Virus record (IMG/VR): IMGVR_UViG_3300031786_000022 | Span: 1 to 36,658 of that record | DNA: 36,658 nt | DNA from: a virus | Lineage: Duplodnaviria > Caudoviricetes | Reading direction: 5' to 3' (one strand) | Part shown: positions 13,209 through 31,691 of the stretch, piece by piece | How the letters are laid out: each line of letters begins with the position of its first letter | Position numbering within the stretch: the stretch's first letter is position 1 | Made by a program: the position numbers and the translations under genes | The notes under the pieces: generated by a model | What the model saw: only the letters and a program-made list of their open reading frames with translations | Database searches by the model: none | What the model was told of the DNA's origin: nothing

Positions 13209-13634
13209 TCACCCGTTCACAATGGGTTCCAATATTGAAACGGTCACATGTGCAATCGCGGCGGATGGCAATATCAACCACAACGTCAATCCGGTGTGGT
13301 AAACTGCCAACGCGTAAATGGCAAACGCAACCCATGTATTCATGCAATACAAACAACCGCCCATTGGTTTATACATGAACCGGAATGGATTTTTTGGGTT
13401 GTTCATCACTCGTTCCAAAAACCAGGTCCAAAAACCGAATATTTGGCCCGGCTGAATGATGAAATCAATGAATATCGTCATGGCTCCGGCTCCAATGCCA
13501 ACCAGGCCCGCCAACATCACCGATTTGAACATGTCGCCATGTTCGGTGAATATTGCCAAACCCAAACCGGTCATGATTCCCAATCCAAACCCGGTCAATT
13601 CATTCAATGTTTTTCGGATTTTTTCCATCAACAA
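13209..13634 (-). CDS. Four-TM membrane protein with CxxC (GGCLYCMNTW), DUF1360-like
   Basis: Four hydrophobic segments; CxxCxxxW at the start of TM3; family call from motif resemblance only. Confidence 0.65.
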   Translation of the reverse strand: MLMEKIRKTLNELTGFGLGIMTGLGLAIFTEHGDMFKSVMLAGLVGIGAGAMTIFIDFIIQPGQIFGFWTWFLERVMNNPKNPFRFMYKPMGGCLYCMNTWVAFAIYALAVYHTGLTLWLILPSAAIAHVTVSILEPIVNG

Positions 13635-13936
13635 ACCGGTGTTATTCCATCAACGGTCCATGAACACGCGCCATCAGATGTGGTGAAATAATAAAATCCG
13701 GAAACGGCCGCGCAATCCGGAACCTGAATTTTGATGGTTGTGGTTCCATTCTCGTTGAACGTCATTGGTAAAACCAACGGGTCATCCTTAATCAATGGAA
13801 CGGTGATGGTTGTATATGTTCCATTTGCGCCCCAAATTTCGAAAACGTAATTGTCCGAACATGGCGCTTTCAAACCAAAATCAATGGTTTGATTTGGCGC
13901 GAAACAACCAATGTGTTTTGAACATCCGCAATTCAT
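13628..13936 (-). CDS. Cys-rich beta-sandwich protein, probably virion, 102 aa
   Basis: 7 Cys; MNCGC start and C-terminal Cys. Confidence 0.7.
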   Translation of the reverse strand: MNCGCSKHIGCFAPNQTIDFGLKAPCSDNYVFEIWGANGTYTTITVPLIKDDPLVLPMTFNENGTTTIKIQVPDCAAVSGFYYFTTSDGACSWTVDGITPVC

Positions 13937-13953
13937 GTGATATCAATTTGGCT

Positions 13954-13961
13954 CAAAGATA
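13954..13961 (-). promoter_or_regulatory. -7 element TATCTTTG upstream of the last two late genes
   Basis: Consensus match in a 26-nt gap; no -33 at canonical spacing. Confidence 0.45.
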
Positions 13962-13962
13962 A

Positions 13963-14529
13963 TCAACACGCCGGACCATCACATGGATTGTCACAATAAT
14001 TTTCCAACGCCATGTCGCGGTCGCCAACCAAATCGAAATCAAAGGCCACAAACGTCAAATGTTTGTCGAACGGGCGGCCTTTTTTCTGCGGCGATTCTTC
14101 GATGGCCACCGTGACGGGGTCAATGGTCGATTCAACCGGAATGATGGAAACGTTGGCAAATGTGGCGGTCGATGGCAGATTCGCGTTGACAACGGCGCCG
14201 CGCAATTGTTCTTCAAACATCCAGGGTTCCGCCCCTCGCAGACATGCAACAACTCGCAATTGATATCGGATTTGGAAAAACGATTGGATTCCGGCGAATT
14301 TCTTTGTGGTTGATGGCGATTGATATTCGATTTTTCCGCCATTTCGAAATCGGATGTAAAACCATGCGGAATCCTGGTCATGGATTCCGGCGAATTGATA
14401 TTCGTTCGAATTGGCGTCACGAATCAACACGCGTCCGTCATCGTCGATTTTGGCCAAATACACCGATTTGGTCAATGATGGAATCGCCGAATGGATGGAT
14501 TCGGCAATTTTACAAATCAAATGTTCCAT
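13963..14529 (-). CDS. Putative tail terminator / neck protein
   Basis: Size, position after the morphogenesis gene, alpha/beta pattern; ends YCDNPCDGPAC. Confidence 0.5.
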   Translation of the reverse strand: MEHLICKIAESIHSAIPSLTKSVYLAKIDDDGRVLIRDANSNEYQFAGIHDQDSAWFYIRFRNGGKIEYQSPSTTKKFAGIQSFFQIRYQLRVVACLRGAEPWMFEEQLRGAVVNANLPSTATFANVSIIPVESTIDPVTVAIEESPQKKGRPFDKHLTFVAFDFDLVGDRDMALENYCDNPCDGPAC

Positions 14530-14532
14530 GAA

Positions 14533-14973
14533 TCAAAAATACGACAACACCCGTTCGGATATTAGGTCGGACAAATAATTTTCGACGTCCTGTCGTTCTC
14601 CGGCGGTTGGAATGAAGATTGGTTTTTTTCTGCGTGATTCCTGTCCTTTTGCTTTGACATAATCGGTCGAATTGGTGATGGCCAAAAACACTTCGTCACC
14701 ACTTTTAACGACTTGAATTGAATCGCGCAATGAACCCGTGAATTCCAAATCAACGGCCCCCGTTTGACGGCCGTTTTCGGTCCTTTTATCAATCCATGAT
14801 TTGGATTTGTATTTTCCAATTTTTCCGCCGTTGGCGTCGCCGCCCTGGTTGAAAATGCGTTGTTTCATTTCACCCTCCAAAAGTTTTCCGCCCAACAACA
14901 AAAGATTCGGAACGTCACGTTCGACATTGGCGACGGTTGTTTGGATTTTTCGGGCGAACTCTTGTGGACTCAT
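14533..14973 (-). CDS. Virion morphogenesis / tail completion protein (HK97 gp10-like)
   Basis: VDLEFTGSLRDSI motif. Confidence 0.7.
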   Translation of the reverse strand: MSPQEFARKIQTTVANVERDVPNLLLLGGKLLEGEMKQRIFNQGGDANGGKIGKYKSKSWIDKRTENGRQTGAVDLEFTGSLRDSIQVVKSGDEVFLAITNSTDYVKAKGQESRRKKPIFIPTAGERQDVENYLSDLISERVLSYF

Positions 14974-15386
14974 TTGAACATTTTATGAATTGTGAACATG
15001 GCTAATATAAGAACAATAATGGACGGAACCAACCACAACCAACGTTTCGTTTCTTCATTGACAACAATGGTCCGAACGGTTTCGGTGTGGTAATTTTCCA
15101 CGCGGACGGTGTCCGATGGACATTTGGTTTCAACGAATATCGAATCGCCCGGCAACCATTGAATCATGGTTTCAATCCTGGTTTCATGGTCGCGGATGAA
15201 CACGGTGTCACGGCCATCAAACGCAACAACGGTGTCCATCCGGGCGCCGTTGATGTGAATCACGGTGTCTTTGACCATTGTGGTCGTCCATTCCTTTTCA
15301 ATCCAACATGGATATTTTGAAACGTGACGTTGGCATGATGTCGCCATGACTGCGGCGATTGCAATTCCGAAAATTGTTTTTTTCAT
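14970..15386 (-). CDS. Unimolecular spanin
   Basis: Lipoprotein signal (MKK…MATS-C), beta-rich middle, C-terminal TM; follows the holin. Confidence 0.75.
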   Translation of the reverse strand: MKKTIFGIAIAAVMATSCQRHVSKYPCWIEKEWTTTMVKDTVIHINGARMDTVVAFDGRDTVFIRDHETRIETMIQWLPGDSIFVETKCPSDTVRVENYHTETVRTIVVNEETKRWLWLVPSIIVLILAMFTIHKMFK

Positions 15387-15814
15387 TGTTTGGCCTCCAA
15401 ATAGTCGTTTTTGTAGTTGTCAATTTTGTCCGTTATCATGCGGGCAAATCCTTTTTTTATCCAACCCAACAACGCCAAATTTTTCACCAATGACATCAAA
15501 TTGACAATGACAATCGGAACGAACACGGCTTCATTCAGCCAAAAAAGAACGTCCGCCCCTTTGGACAAATTCGTTGAAAACATCAACAAGGCCGTATGTG
15601 ATAACAGGGTCCAAAATATCCGGAGCGCAATCCGGGTGTCAAAACGATTGTGTTTGAACGCCAAATATGTGGCCGACAAATGGTCGGCGGCAATCAATCC
15701 AACCAGGGTGAAATAAGAAATTGACGGGTCGAAAATCCAATCCGAAACAAACGCGGAAATGGCGCCGGCGGTGATTCCGCCGAAAATTGTAAAAATGACC
15801 ATTGGCGATTTCAT
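15383..15814 (-). CDS. Holin (phage holin 4 / Cph1-like)
   Basis: 3-4 TM segments, LIAADHLSA and LMSLVKNLALLG motifs, charged tail. Confidence 0.8.
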   Translation of the reverse strand: MKSPMVIFTIFGGITAGAISAFVSDWIFDPSISYFTLVGLIAADHLSATYLAFKHNRFDTRIALRIFWTLLSHTALLMFSTNLSKGADVLFWLNEAVFVPIVIVNLMSLVKNLALLGWIKKGFARMITDKIDNYKNDYLEAKQ

Positions 15815-15885
15815 TTTTTATTTGTACATGTTCCGGGTGGCGGTTCATGTACGTCGCCAATGGTTCGTTTGTTACATGACCAACG

Positions 15886-15975
15886 TCAATATTTGGGACG
15901 CGGACGCGATGTGGTCGGTCTGCTAACGGGACGCGACGTCGATGGTCGCGATGGTTTGTTGCAATTGCATTTCAT
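15886..15975 (-). CDS. 29-aa basic peptide MKCNCNKPSRPSTSRPVSRPTTSRPRPKY
   Basis: ATGA overlap with the upstream stop; CxC N-terminus and four SRP units; not in the ORF track. Confidence 0.65.
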   Translation of the reverse strand: MKCNCNKPSRPSTSRPVSRPTTSRPRPKY

Positions 15976-16247
15976 GATTTCAGTTTTTTATTATTCATGA
16001 TTTGTTCACCATTTGCGCCGTTGAATCCGGAATACCATTCAAGAGCCGCCAAAATCAATTGTGTTTTGGTGATTTCGTATTTTTTACAATACGTTTCCAA
16101 AAAATCTTTTGTTTCGGTTGTTACTCTAACTGCAACCAATTCTTTTTTTGGGTTTTCACTTTTGGCAAATCCGCGAACACCTTTAAATGCTCGTTTTTTT
16201 GATTTGGCCAATTGCGATTCTTTGATGTTGGGTGTCATTGTTTTCAT
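15972..16247 (-). CDS. Ribbon-helix-helix (CopG-like) DNA-binding protein
   Basis: LVAVRVTTETKDFLETYCKKYEITKTQLILAALE strand-helix-helix pattern. Confidence 0.7.
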   Translation of the reverse strand: MKTMTPNIKESQLAKSKKRAFKGVRGFAKSENPKKELVAVRVTTETKDFLETYCKKYEITKTQLILAALEWYSGFNGANGEQIMNNKKLKS

Positions 16248-17185
16248 GGAATTCCTTGGACATATCGCGATTGATTACAGATGACGCAAATGTCATCCAT
16301 CCGGTTGAACAACTCCGGCAATTGTTGGATGGCCGTTTTCATTTGGGCATCATATTGGGCCGTCCAATTCTCCAAACAAAAATTCCAGGTGTCGGAATCC
16401 AAAAGTGTGATTGAATTCAACCGGTCGGTCGTCAACGCTTCTTTTGCGATTTCGATTCCGGTTCGGTACAATATCGGAAAACGCAATTTTTGAGCAATCA
16501 CACATCCGATTTCTTCAACGCTACATTCTGCGGCGGCCCCGACAATCAATCCAAATGATGTTCCGGTTGTTGTGGTTCCGGACCATCCATTTGAAATCAA
16601 AAATTCGCTTTTTTTGGTCGAACACTTGCAACCTCCTTTCACTTTGGTTTTGTTGGTGTCGATGGCCGTGTTGTCCATCGTCACAAACACTTCATCCGTT
16701 TCGGACAAATAATTTGGGAAAATTTCGGCGTCCCCGTTTGCGTCCGATGTAAACGGAAACGATGTGACGTTCAACCCGTCGGTGATGTCAACGTTTCCGG
16801 AATATCCTGGTTGTTGGATTTTGATTTTTACAGATTGAACGCGGATTCGCAACATCCGCGAATCACGGGTGTTGATACGGACGCCCCGGTCCAATGGCGC
16901 CGGCGTGTTCCATGCGTTGTCCCATTCGCCAACCTTTAGTTCGTCAACCAATGAATTCATCCTAAAAAATGGCATGGCGAACCTGGCCATTTCGTCCAAA
17001 ATCAATTGGGTGGCGAAATTGATTTTCGATTCGAGCAATTGAACGCCGGATGAAAATCCGGAATCCGCCATGTCTGCGGCGCGACGGATATTGATTCCCT
17101 CCAAATCGTCAATGTACAATCCGGATTTCGGGTTTGTTTGGGAAACACAACGGATTCCGATAAAATTGTCAAAACATGTCGCCAT
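16244..17185 (-). CDS. Structural protein, possibly head-tail adaptor, 313 aa
   Basis: Start MATCFDNFIG; helical ends with a beta insert; 9 Cys. Confidence 0.5.
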   Translation of the reverse strand: MATCFDNFIGIRCVSQTNPKSGLYIDDLEGINIRRAADMADSGFSSGVQLLESKINFATQLILDEMARFAMPFFRMNSLVDELKVGEWDNAWNTPAPLDRGVRINTRDSRMLRIRVQSVKIKIQQPGYSGNVDITDGLNVTSFPFTSDANGDAEIFPNYLSETDEVFVTMDNTAIDTNKTKVKGGCKCSTKKSEFLISNGWSGTTTTGTSFGLIVGAAAECSVEEIGCVIAQKLRFPILYRTGIEIAKEALTTDRLNSITLLDSDTWNFCLENWTAQYDAQMKTAIQQLPELFNRMDDICVICNQSRYVQGIP

Positions 17186-17678
17186 ATCCAAAAGGGTCTT
17201 TTTTGTAAATGTTTTTTTCCGGAATCCATAAAGATTCCAAATATTTGGGAACCCAAAACGATGGACACGCTTTGTTTCCAAATTGATTGTGGCCGGCAAT
17301 TAGAACGTCCGGTTGATATCTCAAAACTTCGTCAATGATGGCCGCCAATGTTTGTGATTGGGCGTTGTTCAATGTGTTTTTCACTCGTTGTCCGTCTGCG
17401 GACAATCCGCCAACGAAAACAACGTGACGCGAAATTGCGTTGATGCCTTTGACGCCATTGGTGATTTCTCCGTCATCAATCCATTTGTCGCCATTGTGTT
17501 TGACGAACGTTCGACGACTGCCATCCAACAAAATCATGTCCGAATATCCAACGCGCGACCATCCGCGACCATGTGGTGGCGGTGATGTATGCCAACGGAC
17601 AATGTCATCCGGGGTCACGTTTTGTCCTTCCCTGGTCGCCGTGCAATGAATTATCAAATATTTGAACGGTTGTTTCAT
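17169..17678 (-). CDS. Endolysin, N-acetylmuramoyl-L-alanine amidase (T7 lysozyme / Amidase_2-like)
   Basis: IIHCTAT, GWSRVGY, AGHNQ, KACPSF zinc-ligand motifs. Confidence 0.92.
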   Translation of the reverse strand: MKQPFKYLIIHCTATREGQNVTPDDIVRWHTSPPPHGRGWSRVGYSDMILLDGSRRTFVKHNGDKWIDDGEITNGVKGINAISRHVVFVGGLSADGQRVKNTLNNAQSQTLAAIIDEVLRYQPDVLIAGHNQFGNKACPSFWVPKYLESLWIPEKNIYKKDPFGYGDMF

Positions 17679-18103: not shown

Positions 18104-18105
18104 GA

Positions 18106-18945
18106 CTATCGAAAGTTTGTTCCACGGCCGGGTCCGCCTTTTGGCCTGGTCGCCCGTGAAATTTGATTGATTGCGTTTTTGGTTGTTTGGGCGAATCCTG
18201 GTTGTGGATTAAACAATCGACAATCGCCGGTTGGACAATCGACAACGGTTCGTTTTCCCGAAACATTGTTTCCGCCGGATGGCGGTGTTGGGGCCTCTAC
18301 TGCGGTCCCCGTGATTGGAATGACCAATTGTTGACAACCGGTGTCAATGTAAACGTTGCAAGATATCGGACCGGCGGTTGTTGGCTGCCATGTAATCGCC
18401 ACCGATTCAAAACCATCCAAACAAAGTTTTTCGGTTAATATTGGAACAATCGTCAAATCAACACAATCCGTTGAAATGGCGTAATTGTAACAACAAACGG
18501 TCGGATTGGTGATGGTGATGTTCACCGGGTTGATTGTATTCAAATTAACGGTCCCAAAATCAATTGACGGGGTGTCAACGGTTGTTGACATGTCGATGGC
18601 CTCAAAATCAAAATTGAAAAGTTCAACGGTTGTTCCATCAATTAACGCCTCGACAACCAATGTGTCGGTGTCTGCTACACTTCCCGCGCAATATTCGCCC
18701 CCAATCAAAAATGATTGACCTGCGCCAACGGTGAACGGTGCGGTCACGGTGCTTCCATTATAAAGAATTGAAAAATAATTTATTGCGAATAAACCGTTGT
18801 TGAATACAACAACAAAATCCGAAATTTCAATGTCGGACTCTTCGGTATTTGTGACAATACATTCAAATGAACAACAACATCCGCCATACATCAAATTTGT
18901 CCCGGAACCCTGTGGAATTAAACAATTGTCAAAAATTAGCGCCAT
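18106..18945 (-). CDS. Cys-rich virion accessory protein with Ig-like (ASH / choice-of-anchor D type) domains
   Basis: IDFGTV…ITITNPT…ITWQPTTAG…IPITGTAV pattern; 14 Cys; basic tail. Confidence 0.65.
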   Translation of the reverse strand: MALIFDNCLIPQGSGTNLMYGGCCCSFECIVTNTEESDIEISDFVVVFNNGLFAINYFSILYNGSTVTAPFTVGAGQSFLIGGEYCAGSVADTDTLVVEALIDGTTVELFNFDFEAIDMSTTVDTPSIDFGTVNLNTINPVNITITNPTVCCYNYAISTDCVDLTIVPILTEKLCLDGFESVAITWQPTTAGPISCNVYIDTGCQQLVIPITGTAVEAPTPPSGGNNVSGKRTVVDCPTGDCRLFNPQPGFAQTTKNAINQISRATRPKGGPGRGTNFR

Positions 18946-19029: not shown

Positions 19030-19572
19030 TTACAAACCATCCAAATTCACGGCCACGCCACATGGCATGGTCACGGCGTTCCAACTCACGGTTCCGTCAA
19101 AGTAGATGGAACCGGTGTTGTTGTCTTCGATAACCTGGTCAACCTCCATTGTGAACGATGTGATTGGACCATAAAAATATCCATCACATGTGTAGTATCC
19201 GAATTGATACAAAGGGGCGTTCAACTGAATTGAATTATAAAATTCAATGTCGGTACAATCTTCCGGGTCTGAATTGTAATCTTGGAACGTCACCGATTTT
19301 TCGCCGCCAACAATTGATTCGGGCGAACATGACGAAACGCGTTTTTTGGTGAATGTTCCTTTTGCTTTTTGGCCCAACACCAAACCGGTCAAAACAACAT
19401 CACCGGCGGCGATGGCCGCAATCCATTCGTCGCGGTCGCTGACGTCGGTGAACGTGTAGTCACATTTGATGAATGCCAATTTCGAAATTCCGCCGTTTCG
19501 GGTTGTGATACCACACCCGGCGGACGGCGCCGGCGGTAAAGCGGGCGCACATGCTGACGTACATAATGCCAT
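19030..19572 (-). CDS. Probable major tail (tube) protein
   Basis: 180 aa, acidic and beta-rich, GGISKLAFI motif; shares a terminator with the capsid gene; 8 Cys. Confidence 0.65.
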   Translation of the reverse strand: MALCTSACAPALPPAPSAGCGITTRNGGISKLAFIKCDYTFTDVSDRDEWIAAIAAGDVVLTGLVLGQKAKGTFTKKRVSSCSPESIVGGEKSVTFQDYNSDPEDCTDIEFYNSIQLNAPLYQFGYYTCDGYFYGPITSFTMEVDQVIEDNNTGSIYFDGTVSWNAVTMPCGVAVNLDGL

Positions 19573-19607: not shown

Positions 19608-20633
19608 TTACGCGCAACCAACGATTGTTGAACAATCAGCGAAATGGAATGTGTAGTTCACACCTTCGTTCAAATCACCCGTTCCAAACGCGTTGGCCGG
19701 AATGAAGAAAAGTCCCCAATTCAATTGTAGTTTGATTGACCAGGCGTCCGCGCAATCGTCATAATGAACCTTTAAATCGTATGTCAAACCTGTGAACGGG
19801 TCGGTGATGGTTCCATGTTCAAACACGTCGTTTCGCTTTGCGTAATCACCAACATATTTGTTCCATGTCAAAAGTTGAACGGCTCCAGGGGCCAAAACAA
19901 CGAATTCGTTGGCGCCAATAACGCTATCAACAAAACGGTCGTTGTAATAACGATAATCTGTCCAACGCGAAAGGTCCATTCCAGTTGATGAATTACAACA
20001 CGCGATTTGTTGTGTCTTTGCGTACAAATCAAAGTTTCCGCCGCCAATAATCATTGGCGCTCCGGATGCTCCGGTCAAATCGTATTCGTGACGGATTTGG
20101 GCGGCCGCAATTGCTCGCGGCGCGTTTGATGTGGCTTCGAACAATTGGATGTCCTTTTGGGTTGTTCCATCGCTGAAATTTCCAAAATTGGTTGATTGTT
20201 CCGACAACAATTGTTGGTTCAACGCCGTGTTGATGGCGTTCATTTGCGACATGATAACGTTGGAAACATAAACGGAATCGGCTTCGCAAAGTTTTCGCAT
20301 TTGGTCTTCACTAAACAACATTCCTTTGGTTTCAATACATTCGGTTATTGTGACGATTGATTCCAATGGCGCAATTTCCTGGTCCGTATCACATGACGCC
20401 GTACATGTCAGATTCACCGAATCCGCCGTTCCGCGTTGAATGTAGTTAACTTGGACCGAACGATTTTTTCCGTTTGTTGGAATTGGAATTGCTTCAAAAC
20501 CCATGCGGTTTTCTTCGGACATTAGGGCGTCCAAATACCCAACACGGTCGCGCTTCAGCGCCGGCGCGTTCATTCCGGCAACGGAATTCAAATCCGTTTG
20601 CAATTTTTGACAAAGTCCTTGAGTAAATGCCAT
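19608..20633 (-). CDS. Major capsid protein, 341 aa
   Basis: Follows the scaffold; size; start MAFTQG after an A-rich leader; 10 Cys. Confidence 0.8.
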   Translation of the reverse strand: MAFTQGLCQKLQTDLNSVAGMNAPALKRDRVGYLDALMSEENRMGFEAIPIPTNGKNRSVQVNYIQRGTADSVNLTCTASCDTDQEIAPLESIVTITECIETKGMLFSEDQMRKLCEADSVYVSNVIMSQMNAINTALNQQLLSEQSTNFGNFSDGTTQKDIQLFEATSNAPRAIAAAQIRHEYDLTGASGAPMIIGGGNFDLYAKTQQIACCNSSTGMDLSRWTDYRYYNDRFVDSVIGANEFVVLAPGAVQLLTWNKYVGDYAKRNDVFEHGTITDPFTGLTYDLKVHYDDCADAWSIKLQLNWGLFFIPANAFGTGDLNEGVNYTFHFADCSTIVGCA

Positions 20634-20807: not shown

Positions 20808-21641
20808 TTATTTCGATTCGTTTCCGAATACCTTCATGGTCTGCAATGACGCGGCGTTCGCTTGGGCCTTTGCCATTCCGGCCAATTGATATTTGGGCGG
20901 TTCGGCTCCGGGCGTTGGTGGCGGTGGCGGCGTTCCATTGCCTGGTTTGGGCGGTGTTGGACTGCCGTTGGATTGTTTAATCACACCCAACGACGCCAAA
21001 TGTCCATCCAATATTTCGTCAAATGTAACGATTTTCGTTCCATCGTTGTTCAACGGGTTCAAATTATTTTTGGTCTTCACAACCAATTCGCCGTTGTCGT
21101 CCACATCTACATTGAAATTTGATTCCAAATAAGTTTGGACGGCCGGTTTGACAACCTCCGGCGATACAATCAACGAACGTTTGGCGATGGCGGATTGGAT
21201 GAACGATTCGCGTTTGAATGTTTTGATGGCCTGTTTTGCCTCGTTTTCCTTTTGCGGAATGATTTCATCAACCAGGTGTTTGTTTTCGTTGGTCAATTCA
21301 ATCAATCGTTTTTGCAATTCTTCGGCGCCGGCTCCGGCGGTTTTGTTCATCTTATCAAACGCAACCGAAATGATGTCATCGAATTTTTTGTCCTTTACAT
21401 CTTCGGCCGACAACCCGAATGTCTTTTTGATTTTTTGTTCAATCTTCGACAATTCGGTTCCCTTTACTTCGCCGCGAATGGACGAAATGAAATCCGGGTT
21501 GTTTTTCAAAACGTCACGTTGGATGTTTTGGAATTCGGCGGCGATGTCATCGACGTTCAATTCCTGGTCATCGCCATTCAATTTTGTGATGGCATCGGAT
21601 GGAACGCCAATTTTCTTCAAAAACTTTTCAATGTTGGTCAT
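20808..21641 (-). CDS. Capsid scaffolding protein
   Basis: Charged coiled coil and Pro-rich C-terminal linker; upstream of the capsid gene. Confidence 0.75.
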   Translation of the reverse strand: MTNIEKFLKKIGVPSDAITKLNGDDQELNVDDIAAEFQNIQRDVLKNNPDFISSIRGEVKGTELSKIEQKIKKTFGLSAEDVKDKKFDDIISVAFDKMNKTAGAGAEELQKRLIELTNENKHLVDEIIPQKENEAKQAIKTFKRESFIQSAIAKRSLIVSPEVVKPAVQTYLESNFNVDVDDNGELVVKTKNNLNPLNNDGTKIVTFDEILDGHLASLGVIKQSNGSPTPPKPGNGTPPPPPTPGAEPPKYQLAGMAKAQANAASLQTMKVFGNESK

Positions 21642-22156: not shown

Positions 22157-23919
22157 TTGGCAATTTTTACGGTGTTAATATCAATTTTCATGGCCTTCAA
22201 ATAATCTTCGACGAATTCAAAAACCTTTGGATGTGATGTCTTCAAAAAATCATTTGCATACACATACGATGTGAATGATTCAGTCCAAAATTCTTGTTTG
22301 TTTGTTTGACCATACAATGTAGGCGCATCCGACAACTTTAATCCTTTTTTATTCAACAATGACAACATGATTTCGGCGGCTCTTGAATCATTAGCGTTTT
22401 GGATGGCGTGTCCCAATTCATGTGTAATGGTTGGCGCGATGTTTTGGTCAACATCACTTGCAATGGTTGAAATGGTCCATGGTTTAAATTTTCCATTTTG
22501 AAATTCACCGGCGATTTGATAACCTCGCGCAACGTCACGCGTCAACAATTTTTTATTGCCACTTTCGCGAATTTTATATCCATATTTTTCCGCGTGTTGA
22601 TTCAACCAATCTTCGGTTGATTCAATATTGTATTTTTTAAAAATTATTTTTTCCCCTTTGCCAATCTTAATATTCAAATATGAATTATTGGTCGCGCAAT
22701 TGCCGCCCGAATTGGTGGAAATCGTTCCAATTTGATATGTCGGCAAAGTCAATTTTTTTCCGGTTGCTTCGGCAAATTTTTTGGTTCCGGGTCCCGTACA
22801 TTCCGACGGTTTTCGTAATGTCACGAATGTTCCTTTGGCGTTTATTGTTTCAATGATACCATTGGCATTGGCGGCAATTTCATTGAATTGGTTAACCGTT
22901 GATTTTGATTGTGTCGATAAAAATATTTCCGGATTAATTTCCTTTTGTTTGGTCGCGGTGGTTGTTTGCTTTTCAACCTTTGCAACCTCCTTTTCAACCT
23001 CGTTGATTTGTTGTTCAATTTTCACGGGCGCGACTTCTGCCGGCTCCATGTTCAATCGTTCCCGTTGTGATTTGGTCAACTTGAATGGAATGGCCGAATG
23101 GCGACAATTGTATCCGCCACGGTAGATTGAAAAGTTTTCCGGCGTTGTTCCCGGAATCGCTCCGGTTCCATTGGCGTTCATCCATGCAATTTCCGACGGC
23201 AAATCCTTTGATTGAATCACACCCATTGCAACCCAACGCCGACATTGCGGCCTTGAATCTTCAATCAACGAACCGACGTATCGATAGGCATCCAACCCGA
23301 ATTTGTTCGCAATCTTCGCGTTCACCTGGCCATCGAATTGATTCAGGGCGTCCCGGCTGACTTGTTTGACGTAACGTGAAAACAATCCGTCAACCTCCGG
23401 CGTTCCTAAAATGTAGCGCCGTAAATACGCCTCCAAATCCGCCTTTGTGGAACCGGCCACAATATTTTGATAAATGCCCGTCCGAACAGGTTCAATGAAA
23501 TTGGATGAAACGCCTGAACCGGTCAATGACTGCAAGGTTTGTTCAACCGTCGCCCGTTGGATTGGATTAATCAATTCGCCCAATTCGTCCGGCGACAAAT
23601 CATTGACGTCGCGATGGATGTCGAAATTGTATTGTTTCAACGTTTCAAAATTCCGCAAAAACCCGTTCACGTCTTTTGGATATGTCGAACCTTGAATGGC
23701 CTCCAAAATGATTCGTTCGACCTGGTTGGTCAACAAAACATTTCCGTCATCAAACACAAATCGTTCGCCATCGCTCGAAAACTTTTGGACGTGTTTTGAC
23801 AACGCCGCGAACACTCGTTGTTCGGTGGCCGGCAATGAATCGAAAAACGATTGATTGGCCGCCGAAACGGTCCGGTCCTGTTTTCGGATTATGGCAATGA
23901 CGTTGTCATCGAATTCCAT
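22153..23919 (-). CDS. Minor head protein (MuF / SPP1 gp7-like) with C-terminal zincin metallopeptidase domain
   Basis: After the portal; DSRPQC and GGYNCRH motifs; THELGH and YGQTNKQEFWTESF in the C-terminus. Confidence 0.8.
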   Translation of the reverse strand: MEFDDNVIAIIRKQDRTVSAANQSFFDSLPATEQRVFAALSKHVQKFSSDGERFVFDDGNVLLTNQVERIILEAIQGSTYPKDVNGFLRNFETLKQYNFDIHRDVNDLSPDELGELINPIQRATVEQTLQSLTGSGVSSNFIEPVRTGIYQNIVAGSTKADLEAYLRRYILGTPEVDGLFSRYVKQVSRDALNQFDGQVNAKIANKFGLDAYRYVGSLIEDSRPQCRRWVAMGVIQSKDLPSEIAWMNANGTGAIPGTTPENFSIYRGGYNCRHSAIPFKLTKSQRERLNMEPAEVAPVKIEQQINEVEKEVAKVEKQTTTATKQKEINPEIFLSTQSKSTVNQFNEIAANANGIIETINAKGTFVTLRKPSECTGPGTKKFAEATGKKLTLPTYQIGTISTNSGGNCATNNSYLNIKIGKGEKIIFKKYNIESTEDWLNQHAEKYGYKIRESGNKKLLTRDVARGYQIAGEFQNGKFKPWTISTIASDVDQNIAPTITHELGHAIQNANDSRAAEIMLSLLNKKGLKLSDAPTLYGQTNKQEFWTESFTSYVYANDFLKTSHPKVFEFVEDYLKAMKIDINTVKIAK

Positions 23920-23928: not shown

Positions 23929-25614
23929 TTACGCGGTTTGAATCAATTGGGCGGTGACGTATGAATCAATGATTGGTTGGATTCGTTTGTCCAATTCTGC
24001 AAATATTTCGCCCAATGGTTTTTCCAAAAATTCCGTTCCAAATTCGGCGGTGATGGACGTCAATGTTTTGTATGCAAACAACGAACGAATCAAATCGTCG
24101 CGTTTGATACTGCCGGCGGCCAACAACATTTGTTTGTCCTTTGTGTTCAAATGATAAATTGGGTCGTAACTGACCAACACTTCGACCATTCGCGAAATGG
24201 ATTTGTTTCCGGAAAAACGCTTCCGGGCCAAATCTTTGGTCGATTCAACCAGGAACGCAATTGGCGCGTTTTTGTCCGTCAACTTGTTCAATTCATCAAT
24301 CAAATCGTCTTCGGTCTTCATGCTGAATGAAATCGGTTTGACGATGACCGGATTCATCGGTTCGGTGACGTTCCGATATTTTTCAATGAACAACAACGAT
24401 TTGAAAATGATTTCGTCAAATATGTTGTTGGATATTTTGGTCAACTGCGAAAACGAATCTTCGCGGTCAATCATTTTGGCCACTCCGGATTGACTTTCGT
24501 CAATTACATTCAAATGCAATGATTCTTCGGCTTTCTTCAAAAGGGTTTGCCATGCCTGTCCCGAATATTCAATGATGCTCACATCCGGCGAAATGAATCG
24601 AATCATTGGGCCGTTGACGTCGCCATCAACACCCAACGCCGGATTTGCCTTTTCTCGCAGAAATACGCCAAATGGCGAACGTGAAATCACACGTCCGGTT
24701 CCCTTGCAAATTCCACATGTGTCATGTTCTTCGGTTTCGTGATTGTACACAATACCATCGCGGCAACCCTTACCATTGCAATTTTCCGCGATTTCTTCGC
24801 GATACGGAAACGCGGACGTTGTCATGACTGCGGTCCAATCGGAATATTGGCGAATCGCTTCATTGGCAAACGGAACAAACGCCGAAAAATAAGAATCGAA
24901 AAAATGTTCGTCCGTCAAATCGCCGCCCAATATTACGCCCGGAATGGCTCCCATGTCATGTTGGTAAATGACAACGGTTTCAAATCGTTTGTCGATGGCC
25001 TGGCCAATTTGGGTGTGTTTCAAAAATTGCGTGTCGGTCAATGAGTAATAAACCAACCCGGTCATTTGTGATTTGCCGTTTGACATTACGGGCGAATGTT
25101 CGTCCATTGATTGCCATGTCAACAATCCAGGTTCCAACACTTTGATTTGGTCCGACATAATCAACACCGGTTCGGCGTCCACTTTGACGGCCGGATTGGT
25201 CAAACCTTCGCCGACCGGAATCCAAACCAACCATCCGTTCGGGTCTTCAATCATTCTGCGGACAACGAATTTTTGGATGTATGAATAAAAATATTGGCCA
25301 TCAAACTTTCGTTCCGTCAAATATGTGTTCAATTCATCCGAAACGGAAATGGAAAAATTGGCGTTTTGGAATATCCGAAACAATTTGTCAATCGCCCTAT
25401 TCATCGAACCTTTTGTGATTGGTTCGTAAATGGACAAACGATATTTTTGAACGTCCGGGTCTTCATTGGGACGACGTGACGTCAATATTTCTCCAGGGTT
25501 TTTCCCCCGTGTATGAATGAACATGGTTGTCCGAACACGGTTCCAATGCTCCCAATTCTTTGGGTGATATTGGTCATTCGACAACGCGGTCGATATGTTT
25601 TCAATTGTTATCAT
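23929..25614 (-). CDS. Portal protein with an inserted DnaJ-type zinc finger
   Basis: About 561 aa, ESQSGVAKMIDR motif, upstream of MuF; CNGKGC…CGICKGTG. Confidence 0.85.
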   Translation of the reverse strand: MITIENISTALSNDQYHPKNWEHWNRVRTTMFIHTRGKNPGEILTSRRPNEDPDVQKYRLSIYEPITKGSMNRAIDKLFRIFQNANFSISVSDELNTYLTERKFDGQYFYSYIQKFVVRRMIEDPNGWLVWIPVGEGLTNPAVKVDAEPVLIMSDQIKVLEPGLLTWQSMDEHSPVMSNGKSQMTGLVYYSLTDTQFLKHTQIGQAIDKRFETVVIYQHDMGAIPGVILGGDLTDEHFFDSYFSAFVPFANEAIRQYSDWTAVMTTSAFPYREEIAENCNGKGCRDGIVYNHETEEHDTCGICKGTGRVISRSPFGVFLREKANPALGVDGDVNGPMIRFISPDVSIIEYSGQAWQTLLKKAEESLHLNVIDESQSGVAKMIDREDSFSQLTKISNNIFDEIIFKSLLFIEKYRNVTEPMNPVIVKPISFSMKTEDDLIDELNKLTDKNAPIAFLVESTKDLARKRFSGNKSISRMVEVLVSYDPIYHLNTKDKQMLLAAGSIKRDDLIRSLFAYKTLTSITAEFGTEFLEKPLGEIFAELDKRIQPIIDSYVTAQLIQTA

Positions 25615-26678
25615 TCGCAAGTGAGTGATTTGTCACATTCGCATCGTTCGAATGTGGTTTCCAAAAACCATTGTGAACCGATTTCGTTGTTCTTGGAGAT
25701 TTCGCCTTGGATTTGATATTCCGTTCCATTGACAAAAACGTCGCGTCCCGTGAAAACATTCACCAAATATTTGACGAATGTTTCCGGCAAATTGGCCGTT
25801 CTTAACAACCAGGTTTCGCAATATTGCGCGGCGGTTGTTCGCAGTGTGGCTCCAATGGTTTCTTTGGTGATTGTGAAATTGGTTCGTTCAAATGAACCCG
25901 GAACACGAATTTTGTTTGAATACGCAAACGGTGTTCCGTTTCCGGCCGTGAAATTGGTTCCGTAATAATACCCAAAACAATCGGTTCGCGGATAAACAGA
26001 TTCAACCAATTGTGTTTTTTCTCCGTTAGAACATGGAACCATTTTGAATGGCTCCGAACAAAATTCAACAACGGATTCACTAACGCCCAAACAAAAACGT
26101 GACGCCGTGAACGTGAAAAGAAAGTAAAAACACGGGTCCAATCCGGCGCCAACCATATATGTTTGAATGGCGGCCAAATTGAAACGAATAATTTGGATTG
26201 GATTAATTGATTGATTGCCGGCGTAATCGGTTGACGTGTATTCGCCAACGTAATGATTTGGAGCAATGACGCCAAACATTTCTTCAGTAATTTCCAACGC
26301 CTGGTCATCACAACATGAACGGATTTCAAATGTCGCAAAGGCCGTTACTCCAGGGGTCAACAAATCGGTTGGCAACCATCCATTTTCACAATCAACGTTT
26401 CCGATTTCGTCGGGTTGTTGAAATTGAAAATCCATTGTGTCACCGGTTTCGAATGGAACCCAAAATGGAACATCATTCAAACACAATTTGCAATTCCATG
26501 AATCACCACAATCACACAAAATCAATCCATTTTCCAAAATCAATTTCGTGCAATCCTGGCCACATGTGTTTCGGATGTCCACACATAAAATTCGGGCGTT
26601 GGGGTCCGGATATTCACATGGTTCGGTGACATCACAATTGATGACATTGGCCACTCTGTATGAATCGAACAATTCCAT
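25611..26678 (-). CDS. Cys-rich tail tip / baseplate-region protein, 355 aa
   Basis: 21 Cys, beta-rich; last gene of the tail block. Confidence 0.6.
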   Translation of the reverse strand: MELFDSYRVANVINCDVTEPCEYPDPNARILCVDIRNTCGQDCTKLILENGLILCDCGDSWNCKLCLNDVPFWVPFETGDTMDFQFQQPDEIGNVDCENGWLPTDLLTPGVTAFATFEIRSCCDDQALEITEEMFGVIAPNHYVGEYTSTDYAGNQSINPIQIIRFNLAAIQTYMVGAGLDPCFYFLFTFTASRFCLGVSESVVEFCSEPFKMVPCSNGEKTQLVESVYPRTDCFGYYYGTNFTAGNGTPFAYSNKIRVPGSFERTNFTITKETIGATLRTTAAQYCETWLLRTANLPETFVKYLVNVFTGRDVFVNGTEYQIQGEISKNNEIGSQWFLETTFERCECDKSLTCE

Positions 26679-26682: not shown

Positions 26683-26690
26683 CAAAGTTA
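26683..26690 (-). promoter_or_regulatory. -7 element TAACTTTG
   Basis: Consensus match in an 18-nt intergenic gap. Confidence 0.45.
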
Positions 26691-26696
26691 GTTAAA

Positions 26697-29600
26697 TTAT
26701 GGACATAATTGGTTCCCAATTTTGAACGCAAATGTTCCGGTCATGTCCGTTCCGGCTCCGGTTGTAAACAAATAAAATCCGCCGGTGTCGGCGCCCCATG
26801 TAAAGTAAACAGAACCGGACGTTGAACCAACCGGAATGGAAAACGTTGTCGGGTCGCCCGAATCAATGGTCCCCATTTTAAAATCCAACGCCCTGGTTGT
26901 TGGGACGCTGAATAAATATTCAAAATAATATGTTTGCCCCGGGACCGGATAAATCGTCGAACCATTGGATGTTCTAAACAAACAATATCGTCCGGACGTC
27001 ACGTTGTTCAATGTTCCATTGACCGTGTTTCCAACCTGTGGTGATGAAACGACAATCAATGACGAACCCGCGTTTTTTGTATGGAATAAAAAATATTCGC
27101 AAATGGGCGGAACCTCCGGCGAACTAATGTATCCGCAAAAACGATATGTTTTGTTTTCGAACTGCGGCGCGTCCAAAATAACGGACGCGGTCAATGTAAC
27201 GGGGTCGAACACGGTGTCCATCGACAACACCAATGGCGACATCAATTGTGTCATTTGGTTCACTCCAATGACTTCGTCGTTTTCTTGCAGTACGGACAAA
27301 CCGAATGGTTCCGGTTCAATGAAAAACAAAAAATTTCCTTCCATTGTTGATTGATACGTCAATCGAACGGATAACCAATCGGAAAAACAAATCGGTTCTT
27401 CAATCGGAACAAACAAACCCGTCGTCGGGTCCTGGCCTTCAAACGTCACATCGGTCAACCTTGTGTCAAAACCCGTGTTGAATGGCTCGAAATCAATGGC
27501 ATTCACTTTGAACGCTTTGACTACATTCCAAACAAATGGTTGGCCAAAATATGGCGACAAATTAAACGTGAACACATATTCAAAAAATATGTCGTTGTTC
27601 ATCCATGAATCAGTGATGGTCAACGCGGAAACATATGTTGACGCTAATGGTCCGGCCGGTGTTCGGTTCATGTATGTGGCCGTGTTTGCGGTGAATACCT
27701 GGCCACTCGAAAACAAAGTTGATTCCCAACGAACACGGCGGTTTTTGATGTACACGCGGACATCGTTTGCTCCGGATTGTTGAACAACCAAATCATTGAA
27801 ATTTTGGTAATTGCCCGGAAACGCGTTATTTCTAACGGACAAATGTGTTTCGTATTGGAAAAACGTTGTTTGTCCTGTATTTGGATAATCTTCGACGCGT
27901 TTGTATATGTTCAAACGAATGTTTGCCAATACTGTCCGCCAATCTGCGATGTCCAAATCCCATTTGTCCAAACAATCCGCGAAATCACTTGGTGACAAAA
28001 TCAATTGGTGTCCAATCCTTTCTTTGCCAACGGGGCGAAAACATTCGGTTGTTTGTTTCTGCCAATACTGCGAAAATTCCGACGTCATCGACGGGGCGCA
28101 ATCACAATCCATGTCCGGAAATTGGGTGACTCGAAATGAGTTTGACAAAAACGTGTTGACCATTTCCCCGTTTGATGAATAAACAATGGCGGCCATTCGA
28201 TATGTTGACGACGGTTGAACGGTTGTTCCAACGTACAAAGAACCAATCCAATTCGCCCCGGACGTTCCAACGGCTCCAGGTCGAACCAAATGGTTGTCCA
28301 ATACTCCGGCGCCCGAATAGGCGGCGACCAAATAACGTGATGAATCGGTGGCGCTTAAAAAATCAACCGAATTGTCGAACCCGGTTTCATCAAACAAATG
28401 GAAAACGATGTCGGGCGCTGACGTTCCAAACGCCGGAGGTATGTAAACAGAAAATTGAACTTTTGTTTTTTCAATGGTCGAAAAATTCGTCACAACGCCA
28501 TTGTCACGCGACAACGTGAATGATTGGTTGCTAAACTCGGACGGACCATTGTTCAATCCTTTATTGTAAAATCGCGACGTGATGGTTGAACATGTTGTTG
28601 TTCCACATCGAAACATTGAATCGCCAATCAACACGGCCGGGTCGGTCACATGGAAAGCCGCTTGCAATGTTTCGCGGTTGTTGTAAACAGACGGAAATGA
28701 ATTATCGTAATCATTCGACGCATAAAATGAATTCCGTTTCAATTTGACGCTATTGTCAAACGTGACGTTGTCCAAAAATTGTCGAAAATCTTGCACCATG
28801 TAAAATGTGAATTCAACATTGAATTGACCATTGGACGGATTGGTTGGTCTGAAATTGACTTCCCAATTTCGCAAATTCAACGCGTTGGATGTGGTTCCAT
28901 TCAAAACCATTGGTTGGGCCGTCCCGGTCGGATGCGCTCCGGACAAATATTGGATGAAATATCCGGCCGACAACGCGTCGGGTGATTCAAATAATGAATA
29001 ACATTCCGGAGCAAACAACGCCGGGTTGAACTGCAATCGCCATCCGGTCACAATTGGGTTTCCATACTTCATTGAAAACACAACGGTTTTTTTGTCCAAA
29101 AATGACGATTTGGAATGGACGGTGTCCGGTAAGCAGAACCCGCCATCCGGGTTCAAATAATTTCCGTCTGTTTGAATTTCGATGTTCTCACAACAAAGAC
29201 AATCGCAATCCGCCGCGATGGCCGTTCCGGCTGTATTGAATGCAACTCCACAATAATCCGGTACGCATGATATGAAATCCGAAACGTCCGTTGGTGTCCA
29301 TGTTAATGTCATGGAACCCGTTGACATTGGCGCCAAAATCGTTGGTGATGGAACCATGATTGGGTCAACGGAACCACAACCCGTGTAATCCAATGAAATT
29401 GAAACGGGGCCAATTGTTGGATTGTAAAGTGAAACGGATTGGGAATTGGTTGTTCCAACGGGCGTGTCCGTAAAATCAAACACGGTTCCCGAAAACACCC
29501 AAACCGTTGACCAATCAACACATTCCATGTTGAATGTCCACGCCAAATCATTGGTGTGTTCAACGGTCACGAAATTTCCGTCCCAACTACCCAATGGCGA

Positions 29601-29879
29601 CGTGACAGAGTCCCAACAAAATTCAAGGTCCAACGTAAATGTGTCACCTTCAGCGATAAAAAAAGGCCATGAAACGGCGCCGCCATTGATGGCAATGATA
29701 TTGATGGACGCCAAACCCGAACCGGTCAAATCGGTCAAAAAATCGGTGATGTTCAAATCCGAACTATGGACGTTTTCAAACGTCACGGTCGCGACCTGGC
29801 AGATTTGACAACAATTCAAATAATTGATTGGACCATCCGGTTGGATGCCATTCACAATATCAATTCGATGTATGGCCAT
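26697..29879 (-). CDS. Large tail fibre / adhesin-like protein, 1060 aa, with N-terminal Ig-like domains
   Basis: Beta-rich, T/S/N/F-rich, 25 Cys; second gene after the tape measure. Confidence 0.7.
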   Translation of the reverse strand: MAIHRIDIVNGIQPDGPINYLNCCQICQVATVTFENVHSSDLNITDFLTDLTGSGLASINIIAINGGAVSWPFFIAEGDTFTLDLEFCWDSVTSPLGSWDGNFVTVEHTNDLAWTFNMECVDWSTVWVFSGTVFDFTDTPVGTTNSQSVSLYNPTIGPVSISLDYTGCGSVDPIMVPSPTILAPMSTGSMTLTWTPTDVSDFISCVPDYCGVAFNTAGTAIAADCDCLCCENIEIQTDGNYLNPDGGFCLPDTVHSKSSFLDKKTVVFSMKYGNPIVTGWRLQFNPALFAPECYSLFESPDALSAGYFIQYLSGAHPTGTAQPMVLNGTTSNALNLRNWEVNFRPTNPSNGQFNVEFTFYMVQDFRQFLDNVTFDNSVKLKRNSFYASNDYDNSFPSVYNNRETLQAAFHVTDPAVLIGDSMFRCGTTTCSTITSRFYNKGLNNGPSEFSNQSFTLSRDNGVVTNFSTIEKTKVQFSVYIPPAFGTSAPDIVFHLFDETGFDNSVDFLSATDSSRYLVAAYSGAGVLDNHLVRPGAVGTSGANWIGSLYVGTTVQPSSTYRMAAIVYSSNGEMVNTFLSNSFRVTQFPDMDCDCAPSMTSEFSQYWQKQTTECFRPVGKERIGHQLILSPSDFADCLDKWDLDIADWRTVLANIRLNIYKRVEDYPNTGQTTFFQYETHLSVRNNAFPGNYQNFNDLVVQQSGANDVRVYIKNRRVRWESTLFSSGQVFTANTATYMNRTPAGPLASTYVSALTITDSWMNNDIFFEYVFTFNLSPYFGQPFVWNVVKAFKVNAIDFEPFNTGFDTRLTDVTFEGQDPTTGLFVPIEEPICFSDWLSVRLTYQSTMEGNFLFFIEPEPFGLSVLQENDEVIGVNQMTQLMSPLVLSMDTVFDPVTLTASVILDAPQFENKTYRFCGYISSPEVPPICEYFLFHTKNAGSSLIVVSSPQVGNTVNGTLNNVTSGRYCLFRTSNGSTIYPVPGQTYYFEYLFSVPTTRALDFKMGTIDSGDPTTFSIPVGSTSGSVYFTWGADTGGFYLFTTGAGTDMTGTFAFKIGNQLCP

Positions 29880-29891
29880 TTTCGTGTTTTA

Positions 29892-31691
29892 TTAAACGAT
29901 TCCGGAAACGCCAATGGTCCGTTTCACAAAATCAATTTGCAATTCTTTGATTTCTCCAAATTTAATGTTGTTTCCAACTCGCAGACGAACCGATTTCGAA
30001 AAATCAATTCCATTGTATTCACCACAGTCAAAAGAAAAGGTGAAATTGAAATTGAACAATTTCGTTCCGGCCAACCTTGGATTGTCGATGTAATGAAATA
30101 ACGTGTACAAATTGTTGGCGGCGTTATTATTGAACGACATTGGATAATTAAACAAATGTTCGGGCGGAACGGTGTTGTTTGAATTAAAAAACGCCAAAAT
30201 TTCGCTGCCGGGCGTTAAATATGGACGGCGAACGGGCGAAAGTGTGAAATTCAAATCGTAGTTGGTTTGTACCCTTGCGTTTTCGTCGCCGCTTGCAGAA
30301 TTCCAAATCAAAAATTTGTAATTGGATGGCGTATGTTGGGCCATCATTAAAAGTCCGCGTGATGCCTGTATTGTTGGAATAAATGGCAAAGCAAAAATGA
30401 ATCCGGCGTACACCTGTTGTTCCAAATTATCGGTTCCGGCTCCGTCCCAACGAAAACGCGGCATTGACGACAACAACGTGACGTCCAATGATTCTTTTTG
30501 ACGCAATGATGGCGGCGAATTCCATTCCACAATGTCTTCAAATCGCAAACCGGCTTCATTTCCCGTGATGTCGATGGCGTCCAAAGAATATTTGTAAATG
30601 GCAAACGCCTTTTGTGGTTTATCAATCCAGGAAAAACAAATTTCATTTTCAACGATTCTGCCATCATTCAACAATTGTTCGGCGTCAATCCAGGGCGCCG
30701 CCGCCGAAAAATTGTCCTTTCGTTCAAACAAAAACGTGTTTCCTACAATCCAATATCGCGCGTTGAAAATTGGATTCAAATGGCGCGTCATCAATGTGTC
30801 CAATGATTCGATTGGCAAATTTTGTTCAATCAATCTCGCTTCGGTGTCGCTTGGTTTGTATCCGCGTTGCACCGGAGCGGAAAACAATAATAAATTGTAG
30901 TATGGTGATGACGGGTCATTCAAAATCGACGATTGGAATGTCAATCCACATTTGTCACAAACATTTTGAATGTAGTCACGAACTAACGCGGTCGGGTGAT
31001 ACCACTGACATTGAATCATCCGGTCGCGCAAATCATTATACCAACCTGAAATGTCGGAAAATGCACCGGCCGGATTCGTCCATGTTCCACCCTGGCAATC
31101 TGCCAATGTGCAATTTGGTGAAACGGCGCAAACAACGGAACAAACAACAAAGGCAATTGATTGAATGACAACAACAACGGCCGACAATGGCAATAACACC
31201 AAAAAAATGGCCGTGTTCAATATGCCATAAATCAAAAACAAAATCGCATAAATAAAGTCGGGTCTGGTTTCGATGCAATATCTTAATTTTTTTTGTGGTT
31301 GACTCAAAAAACCATTGTGGTTGTCAGTTATCAATGTGGATTTGACACAATTCAAGGCTTCTTTTTTTTCAACCACACTCGCAGACACCCAACATTCGGG
31401 TTCGCACCAATCAACGGAATTCCCGGAAATGAATCCGGAAAACACCAAACGTCCACAACATTCGTCAAAAATTTCCACATCAACTTCATTGATGAATCCA
31501 TTGGGGTTGTCAATCAAAATCGACCTTAAAATGGAATATCCGTCATCATAAAATCGTAACTCCGACGAATAGGACTTTGCCAATCCGCCATCGTCATCGT
31601 TTTCACGCCATGTGATTGTGAATTGTTCGGTTCCATCAATTCGACCGGTGATGACGGTTCCGTTTAATTTGATGACAATGGGTGATTTCAT
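29892..31691 (-). CDS. Tail tip / hub protein with an internal hydrophobic segment, 599 aa
   Basis: ATGA overlap with the tape measure; C-terminal GEIKELQIDF pattern; 15 Cys. Confidence 0.65.
   Translation of the reverse strand: MKSPIVIKLNGTVITGRIDGTEQFTITWRENDDDGGLAKSYSSELRFYDDGYSILRSILIDNPNGFINEVDVEIFDECCGRLVFSGFISGNSVDWCEPECWVSASVVEKKEALNCVKSTLITDNHNGFLSQPQKKLRYCIETRPDFIYAILFLIYGILNTAIFLVLLPLSAVVVVIQSIAFVVCSVVCAVSPNCTLADCQGGTWTNPAGAFSDISGWYNDLRDRMIQCQWYHPTALVRDYIQNVCDKCGLTFQSSILNDPSSPYYNLLLFSAPVQRGYKPSDTEARLIEQNLPIESLDTLMTRHLNPIFNARYWIVGNTFLFERKDNFSAAAPWIDAEQLLNDGRIVENEICFSWIDKPQKAFAIYKYSLDAIDITGNEAGLRFEDIVEWNSPPSLRQKESLDVTLLSSMPRFRWDGAGTDNLEQQVYAGFIFALPFIPTIQASRGLLMMAQHTPSNYKFLIWNSASGDENARVQTNYDLNFTLSPVRRPYLTPGSEILAFFNSNNTVPPEHLFNYPMSFNNNAANNLYTLFHYIDNPRLAGTKLFNFNFTFSFDCGEYNGIDFSKSVRLRVGNNIKFGEIKELQIDFVKRTIGVSGIV

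Follow-up and report, generated by a model that had tools for sequence, protein, structure and literature searches.

Disulfide bonds have been reported in the particles of several phages. The virion of the Agrobacterium phage Milano holds a disulfide network with the small linking proteins LP1 and LP2 (PMC10491603). Jabs, a siphophage of Mycobacterium abscessus belonging to cluster MabL (PMC12993973), has about 1,700 disulfides, and its authors call the catalyst an open question and suggest that the bonds form during or after lysis (Jabs preprint). A near virion-wide network is reported for the Parabacteroides phage PD491P1, according to PMC13576161, and PD491P1 is placed with PDS1 in one candidate genus (PMC10773633). 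Disulfides are also described in the baseplate and fibre of Pam3 (PMC9942802), in the tail and gp57 of crAss001 (PMC10172136) and in the tube of NBD2 (PMC13576161). Outside the phages, poxvirus E10R/A2.5L/G4L and the thiol oxidoreductases of mimivirus are examples of virus-encoded cytoplasmic disulfide formation for virion proteins, and the same source states that for phages such disulfide-forming machinery has not been described (PMC13576161). Here we compare these systems with the uncultured phage IMGVR_UViG_3300031786_000022, whose 36,658 nt (the whole stretch analysed, called the window below) are the entire virus record, with the genes on the minus strand. The subject is a late gene at 13209..13634, which encodes a small membrane protein with a CxxC motif, and the Cys-rich virion proteins encoded upstream of it. 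We propose that this protein of the DUF1360 family would be a cytoplasm-facing membrane thiol oxidase, which takes electrons from virion thiols and passes them to quinone, and we give this reading a probability of about 0.5.

The CxxC protein has 213 relatives among cluster representatives. In an alignment of 150 rows (10 close matches, the query and 139 other listed representatives, most at 18-38% identity), C94 and C97 were present in 150 of 150 and were the sole invariant residues, while position 101 was W in 136 rows and Y in 11. The phage protein holds two Cys in total. Its structure model has a predicted local distance difference test score (pLDDT) of 95.6 and contains the helix H95-114, so C94-x-x-C97 opens a membrane helix. 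The first-pass annotation had described the product of the last late gene as a CxxC protein with four transmembrane helices. Four hydrophobic helices are indeed found here, but the first is filled in about 22 of the 150 rows and the family core consists of three. The bias of K and R residues puts the CxxC side inside, in the cytoplasm, in 150 of 150 family members. The 20 residues before the motif have a net charge of +2.0, against -0.4 in 11 DsbB and -0.2 in 5 VKOR proteins, and the same 20 residues are net positive in Bacillales copies of DUF1360 too. On sequence grounds, the CxxC motif is predicted to face the cytoplasm.

By its matches, the protein is a divergent member of DUF1360/phrog_781. 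The score with Pfam DUF1360 (PF07098) was 15.9 bits, below the 21-bit cut-off, and 25 of the 150 homologues matched at E<=0.05. Phrog_781 was matched at E 7e-6, and the profile of the CxxC family matched Bacillales DUF1360 with a probability of 91 and E 9e-7. In a language-model feature atlas the protein stood at 0.93 to a cluster with 42% DUF1360, and its structure model also matched viral folds that support the same membership. It shares with the family the order of helix, amphipathic loop, CxxCxxxW helix and helix, but differs in its Pfam score below the cut-off and in an extra N-terminal helix; the function of the family is not known. DsbB (PF02600) and VKOR (PF07884) are also alike in that CxxC opens a membrane helix, with W or Y (R or H in look-alikes) four residues on. 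However, the CxxC protein is predicted by the charge rule to carry its motif on the opposite side of the membrane, and has a single Cys pair and no profile match with either of them. A wide fold search with the model gave generic helical bundles (best Z 7.6), the 50 matches listed including neither DsbB nor VKOR, and PDB sequence searches with the CxxC family, the capsid, the tube and the 102-aa family gave nothing significant. The protein is not filed as DsbB or VKOR, but it may work like an inverted one.

The putative exterior virion proteins were richer in Cys than other proteins of the window. Nine putative exterior proteins, several of them labelled so from position alone, hold 107 Cys in 3459 residues (3.1%), against 57 in 4305 (1.3%) for non-virion proteins, which comprised early, packaging, lysis and chaperone proteins (Fisher p=1e-7). 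The three interior proteins hold 4 Cys in 2034 residues (p=3e-17 against the exterior proteins). The individual Cys counts of the first-pass annotation were confirmed for the capsid, tube, tip, fibre, tape measure and scaffold proteins and for those of 355, 279 and 102 aa (Table 1). Every Cys-bearing terminal motif quoted there was also located, MKCNC being the start of a 29-aa open reading frame (ORF) at 15886-15975. Three broader statements needed narrowing. Exterior proteins are loaded with Cys as claimed, except that the product of 14533-14973 has none (0 in 36 of 39 homologues). The proteins expected to leave the particle are Cys-free, but a Cys-free tape measure was found in five of five reference phages, among them Pam3, whose capsid protein is likewise without Cys; we dropped it as specific evidence, since it is generic among tape measures. 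Cys were further said not to lie in zinc-finger pairs. CxxC is in fact rare, and the capsid and tube proteins have none, but it occurs once each in the adaptor, the 355-aa protein and the tip and twice in the fibre, and four Cys stand together in the portal.

We compared the best 120 of 233 capsid homologues, at 39-100% identity. C8, C81, C116, C212, C213 and C294 were present in 119-120 of them, and all 120 retain the core Cys. The total of core Cys was even in 112 of 120 (108 when N-terminal extensions are counted), and the control residues W, H, M, Y and F gave even totals in 54-65 of 120, a contrast which is inflated by kinship. C77 and C99 were both present in 70 homologues and both absent in 50, and neither was ever found singly. 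They changed jointly in four of four independent pairs (p=0.125), and two control pairings mostly did not. C77 and C99 would make a single bond, in the E-loop or beside it, and C81 would bond to a neighbour. Some capsid lineages gain the Cys pairs 69/317 and 157/319; the co-variation of these two pairs and of 334/340 comes from only one or two independent pairs. In the tube protein, six of the eight Cys were present in all 44 full-length homologues and the other two in 89%, giving a conservation of 0.97 against 0.68 for the remaining residues. In the adaptor and tip and in the proteins of 355 and 102 aa, conservation was likewise higher at Cys than elsewhere; in the 188-aa protein (13963..14529) it was barely so. 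Because the capsid Cys change two at a time and at distant positions, disulfides fit better than four-ligand metal sites. We regard it as very probable from these patterns that the virion is crosslinked by disulfides, and analogue virions suggest that some of the bonds lie between subunits. The disulfide-stitched virion had been put forward as a candidate new system. Conserved Cys, even totals, pair co-variation and the analogue virions favour the stitching, but it is not new, having been published for Milano, Pam3, Jabs and PD491P1. What the present analysis adds is the parity and co-variation of the capsid Cys, the gene checks in PD491P1 and Milano and the link with the spore crust.

A strongly hydrophobic N-terminal stretch was seen in 35 of the 120 capsid homologues, mostly as a two-helix extension of 60 aa (L055:9785-11008; P0210, P0229, P0248-P0283). 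Such an N-terminus may anchor the capsid protein during assembly at the membrane, where the CxxC protein sits.

The CxxC gene has a fixed place in relatives of the phage. Among 58 fetched capsid loci, 30 reach 6 kb or more downstream; every one of these carries the gene, and all belong to one lineage. The gene for the 102-aa protein, which is likely to be a virion linking or decoration protein with a Cys hook by analogy with LP1 of Milano, precedes it in 29 of the 30 by BLAST and in the rearranged relative L055 by eye. In L055 (4712-5590, 15090-18112), genes that look by eye like glycosyl- and methyltransferases are inserted among the virion genes, and the order of Cys-hook and CxxC genes is kept. 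A counterpart of the 29-aa micro-protein stands in each of the 30 loci in which the genes on both sides were matched, and its relatives carry CxC in some cases and CxxC in others. Relatives without the CxxC gene were not found with amidase, RecT and terminase as anchors, which gave mostly the same lineage. Two Flavobacterium phages with no match by BLAST proved to have a divergent copy.

The comparison was widened to 14 named phage records. Members of the DUF1360 family were found in PDS1, Fpv5, tant8-1, the Gordonia phage Ashertheman and crAss001 (E 8e-17 for the last), and a motif look-alike, gp4, in Milano. The PD491P1 protein is 98.8% identical to the DUF1360 protein gp55 of PDS1, and 7-7-1 and OLIVR4 share gp4 with Milano. 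The surroundings of the DUF1360 gene are neck and tail-assembly genes in PDS1, Fpv5 and tant8-1, and in Ashertheman it adjoins the portal gene. No plausible CxxC gene was found in Pam3, NBD2, T1, lambda, P22, HK97, SPP1 or Mu by a motif scan that found five of seven known positives; lambda gave one weak match, resembling a shadow frame. Both checkable phages with a reported virion-wide network, PD491P1 and Milano, carry a gene for a CxxC helix. The pattern in these sequences is that these two virion-wide networks go with such a gene and that local disulfide sets do not need one.

PD491P1/phiPDS1 (candidate Paboviridae; PDB 9wwa/9wwb) resembles the present phage in several respects. The portals are homologous (probability 99.4), the tube and adaptor give weak profile matches with aligned Cys, the PDS1 tube matching PDB 9wwa, and in PDS1 the DUF1360 gene comes after the putative tail terminator. 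Tube and adaptor gave no significant pairwise BLAST match with PDS1, and a profile link of our putative tail terminator (13963..14529) to the PDS1 lineage was not significant either. The present phage differs in its far higher number of Cys (capsid 10 against 4, tube 8 against 4), in having additional Cys-hook proteins and in the greater length of its CxxC protein. Milano is alike in that gp4 with its CxxC helix is followed by gp5, a basic CxC protein of 42 aa annotated as virion-associated (L060:3913-4287), which resembles the product of 15886-15975. It differs in being a contractile myophage, and its gp4 has one membrane helix and the motif CxxC-xxx-R. Milano gp4 is unannotated, gp4-gp5 lie within the virion block, and the disulfide network of this phage has been solved. 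A term search for oxidoreductase, thioredoxin and Dsb gave nothing in two Milano papers (including PMC10491603). Jabs differs in its two capsid proteins and its actinobacterial host.

The same family is found in spore-forming bacteria. Of 46 sampled genomes of Bacillales, 34 have DUF1360; among 14 control genomes it was present only in B. subtilis. A gene of the CotY/CotZ family (9-18 Cys) lay within 1.5 kb of DUF1360 in 13 of 32 Bacillales loci read (L282-L313). Two further loci had Coat_X and two had CotO only, so that some coat gene (cotY/Z, cotX/V or cotO) was near in at least 17 of 32; these counts are lower bounds from 26 hand-picked neighbours scanned, and the genomes are kin. All 31 Bacillales copies read contain CxxCxGxW. 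In B. subtilis, the family member is presumably yjcA. The gene yjcA adjoins cotV (PMC11708026) and belongs to the sporulation genes that most bacilli have (PMC3533761). Coat proteins are synthesised in the cytoplasm of the mother cell (PMC11708026), CotY is disulfide-crosslinked, and a 2015 paper asks how its disulfides could arise in the spore mother cell (PMC4950064). Literature searches gave no relevant paper joining yjcA with disulfide, nothing on redox for DUF1360 by title or abstract start, and the Jabs preprint as the only relevant paper on phage-encoded oxidoreductases.

According to the proposed reading, Cys of the capsid, tube, adaptor and tip would pair into a virion-wide disulfide network with some bonds between subunits, and the 102-aa and 29-aa Cys-hook proteins would act like the linking proteins of Milano. 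The CxxC motif would cycle between dithiol and disulfide, taking electrons from virion thiols directly or via a small Cys-hook protein and handing them to membrane quinone, so that the reaction would run even without oxygen. Ordered lattices can also carry out this reaction slowly unaided, and the enzyme would accelerate it or bring it to completion. Poxviruses and mimivirus use soluble flavin adenine dinucleotide (FAD), Erv-type chemistry. In contrast, the route proposed here would be membrane-bound and probably quinone-linked, and no Erv/ALR FAD oxidase or thioredoxin-fold shuttle was above cut-off among the 49 window proteins scanned. That the phage carries a catalyst of its own, as had been claimed from the first, is favoured by the invariant CxxC, its predicted cytoplasmic side, the 30 of 30 co-occurrence, the genes of PD491P1, crAss001 and Milano and the CotY/CotZ neighbours; it is opposed by the failure to find a structural or profile link with DsbB or VKOR and by bonds that form elsewhere without the gene.

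These opposing points and others like them weigh against a thiol oxidase. At E<=0.001, Foldseek found nothing in PDB for the CxxC model. Between the CxxC family and small profiles of DsbB and VKOR the match probability was below 1%, in a test where the control of VKOR with DsbB reached only 17%. The protein lacks a second conserved Cys pair or redox pair, and family scans of the window found no thioredoxin-like partner apart from one weak sub-threshold match on an early gene. Because no relative without the CxxC gene was found, there is no within-clade contrast. The gene stands alongside capsid proteins poor in Cys in Ashertheman (2 of 635 residues), tant8-1 (2 of 351) and Fpv5 (3 of 349), and in crAss001 it lies among small genes with no evident Cys-rich structural neighbour. 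Milano gp4 was not matched by DUF1360 profiles and is linked by motif only. Virion disulfides exist in Pam3, NBD2 and T1 (PMC9942802, PMC13576161), where our scan, with five of seven known positives recovered, found no such gene, so Cys-bonded virions are in part independent of it, as far as local sets are concerned. Engineered Cys in a recombinant tube protein gave disulfides (PMC13576161), and in E. coli the crystals of CotY crosslink without such a gene (PMC4950064). The coat-gene neighbours in Bacillales may reflect shared sporulation control. The spore setting cuts both ways: the family adjoins a Cys-rich shell built in the cytoplasm, yet the shell crosslinks without the family.

Part of this evidence speaks for a serious though somewhat doubtful alternative, in which the virion is crosslinked but the bonds form by themselves, after lysis or by cooperativity of the lattice, and the CxxC protein has a different thiol task at the membrane, for instance holding subunit thiols reduced or reshuffling them until assembly, or docking the Cys-hook proteins. 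The recombinant tubes and CotY show disulfides arising unaided, the lysis timing suggested by the Jabs authors agrees with it, and so do the phages with bonds and no gene and those with the gene beside Cys-poor capsids. The 102-aa Cys-hook gene always comes before the CxxC gene, even in the rearranged L055, which also suits such a role. However, the carriers include phages of gut Bacteroides and Parabacteroides. The habitat of these hosts is anoxic, so that oxidation by air would be poor, and the cytoplasm already has reductases. Moreover, PD491P1 and Milano, with their virion-wide networks, each carry a gene for a CxxC helix.

It is improbable that the CxxC motif instead binds zinc or iron-sulfur, which two copies would perhaps share, and that it loads or senses metal, with many virion Cys as metal ligands. 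CxxC is a common metal motif, the three-helix core makes a dimer plausible, and single CxxC motifs occur in the adaptor, tip and 355-aa proteins. The portal carries at residues 279-303 a DnaJ-like insertion with four Cys, conserved in 91-100% of 32 homologues; its match with the DnaJ-like zinc finger (E 0.018) was below cut-off, and the insertion probably binds zinc. The capsid and tube argue otherwise: they have no CxxC, and capsid Cys change by twos at distant positions (77/99, 69/317) and not by fours. In addition, disulfide linkage is reported for the virions of the related PD491P1 and of Milano, an analogue. It is very improbable that the CxxC protein is a lysis accessory (holin-like or a timing factor) whose co-occurrence with Cys-rich proteins reflects shared descent of the late operon: it is a small membrane protein of several helices, encoded close to holin-, spanin- and amidase-like genes, and all 30 co-occurrences come from one lineage, but the phage has a separate holin-like gene, the two Cys are the only invariant residues, the chromosomal Bacillales copies lie among spore-coat genes, and the phage copies stand among neck and tail-assembly genes or next to the portal gene.

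The features around the CxxC gene are listed in Table 1, where the roles of the tip, fibre, tube and the 355-, 279- and 188-aa proteins come from position and weak homology, without family matches. The phage is, by its gene content, a siphovirus, because terminase, tape measure, portal and amidase match families and the 341-aa protein has the HK97 capsid fold. The capsid model gave 301 Foldseek matches at E<=0.001, with E 5e-11 to Douge gp8, and no cultured phage matching the capsid protein was found. A Bacteroidota host is likely, judging from portal homology with the PDS1 lineage and one homologue from an Aequorivita genome bin. The ends of the record are repeated: bases 1-2338 correspond to about 34318-36657 at 89% identity and hold the same terminase to tape-measure stretch. 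The record probably joins two strain variants in assembly, with a genome unit of about 34.3 kb; the longest close relatives, at 32-35 kb, are similar to it. Gene order is unusual in 31688-36648, where terminase, a chaperone-like gene, tape measure and tip genes follow each other, and portal and capsid come only afterwards. At its C-terminus the MuF-like protein has an HExxH domain (Pfam ATLF, E 3e-7), in the manner of MuF proteins that carry additional domains.

Table 1. Genes of the late region, with Cys counts and the basis of each assignment (coordinates on the window).
Feature	Coordinates	Strand	Cys	Basis or remark
DUF1360/phrog_781-like membrane protein	13209..13634	-	2	139 aa from ATG 13628, 141 aa from TTG 13634
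102-aa protein, MNCGC start	13628..13936	-	7/102	conserved C3, C5, C11, C91, C102; in relatives immediately upstream of the CxxC gene
Putative tail terminator	13963..14529	-	5	3 Cys in variable C-terminal tail; position
HK97 gp10-like neck/tail protein	14533..14973	-	0	family matches
Likely spanin-like lysis protein; lipoprotein with a hydrophobic helix at the C-terminus	14970..15386	-		from sequence
Putative holin-like membrane protein	15383..15814	-	0	from sequence; adjoins amidase block
29-aa micro-protein, MKCNC then Pro/Arg/Ser tail	15886..15975	-		below ORF-caller size, absent from ORF list
Putative head-tail adaptor	16244..17185	-	9	8 Cys conserved in >=93% of 41 homologues
Amidase endolysin	17169..17678	-		family matches
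Ig-like putative accessory virion protein	18106..18945	-	14/279	ASH-type, weak match
Putative tail tube protein	19030..19572	-	8/180	weak profile link to PDS1 tube
HK97-fold major capsid protein	19608..20633	-	10 (340 aa plus Met)	fold and homologues
Putative scaffold	20808..21641	-	0/277	0 Cys in 49/49 homologues
MuF-like head morphogenesis protein	22153..23919	-	4	C-terminal zinc-peptidase-like domain
Portal	23929..25614	-	4	DnaJ-like Cys pattern; homologous to PDS1/PD491P1-lineage portal
355-aa putative tail-tip protein	25611..26678	-	21/355	position, weak homology
1060-aa putative fibre with ASH-like domain	26697..29879	-	25/1060	position, weak homology
599-aa putative tail-tip protein	29892..31691	-	15/599	10 Cys invariant in 19 full-length homologues
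Tape measure protein	31688..35197	-	0/1169	family matches; 0 Cys in 50/50 homologues

If the proposed oxidase is wrong, this Cys-rich virion would be a further example of the known disulfide-crosslinked type. If it is real, the catalyst would fill a gap that is stated in two 2026 papers (PMC13576161; Jabs preprint). As one small gene family occurs in phage and spore settings, both questions of catalysis can be tested by gene deletion. We suggest tentatively, at a little under even odds, that DUF1360 may form, next to DsbB and VKOR, a third class of membrane thiol oxidases, inverted to the cytoplasm, which staples the virions of Bacteroidota, actinobacterial and crAss-type phages and the spore crust of Bacillales. 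One enzyme family would then build disulfide-locked shells in the bacterial cytoplasm. It would also assign a function to a DUF that occurs in abundant gut phages and in 34 of the 46 sampled genomes of Bacillales, and would make available for protein production a natural catalyst that faces the cytoplasm.

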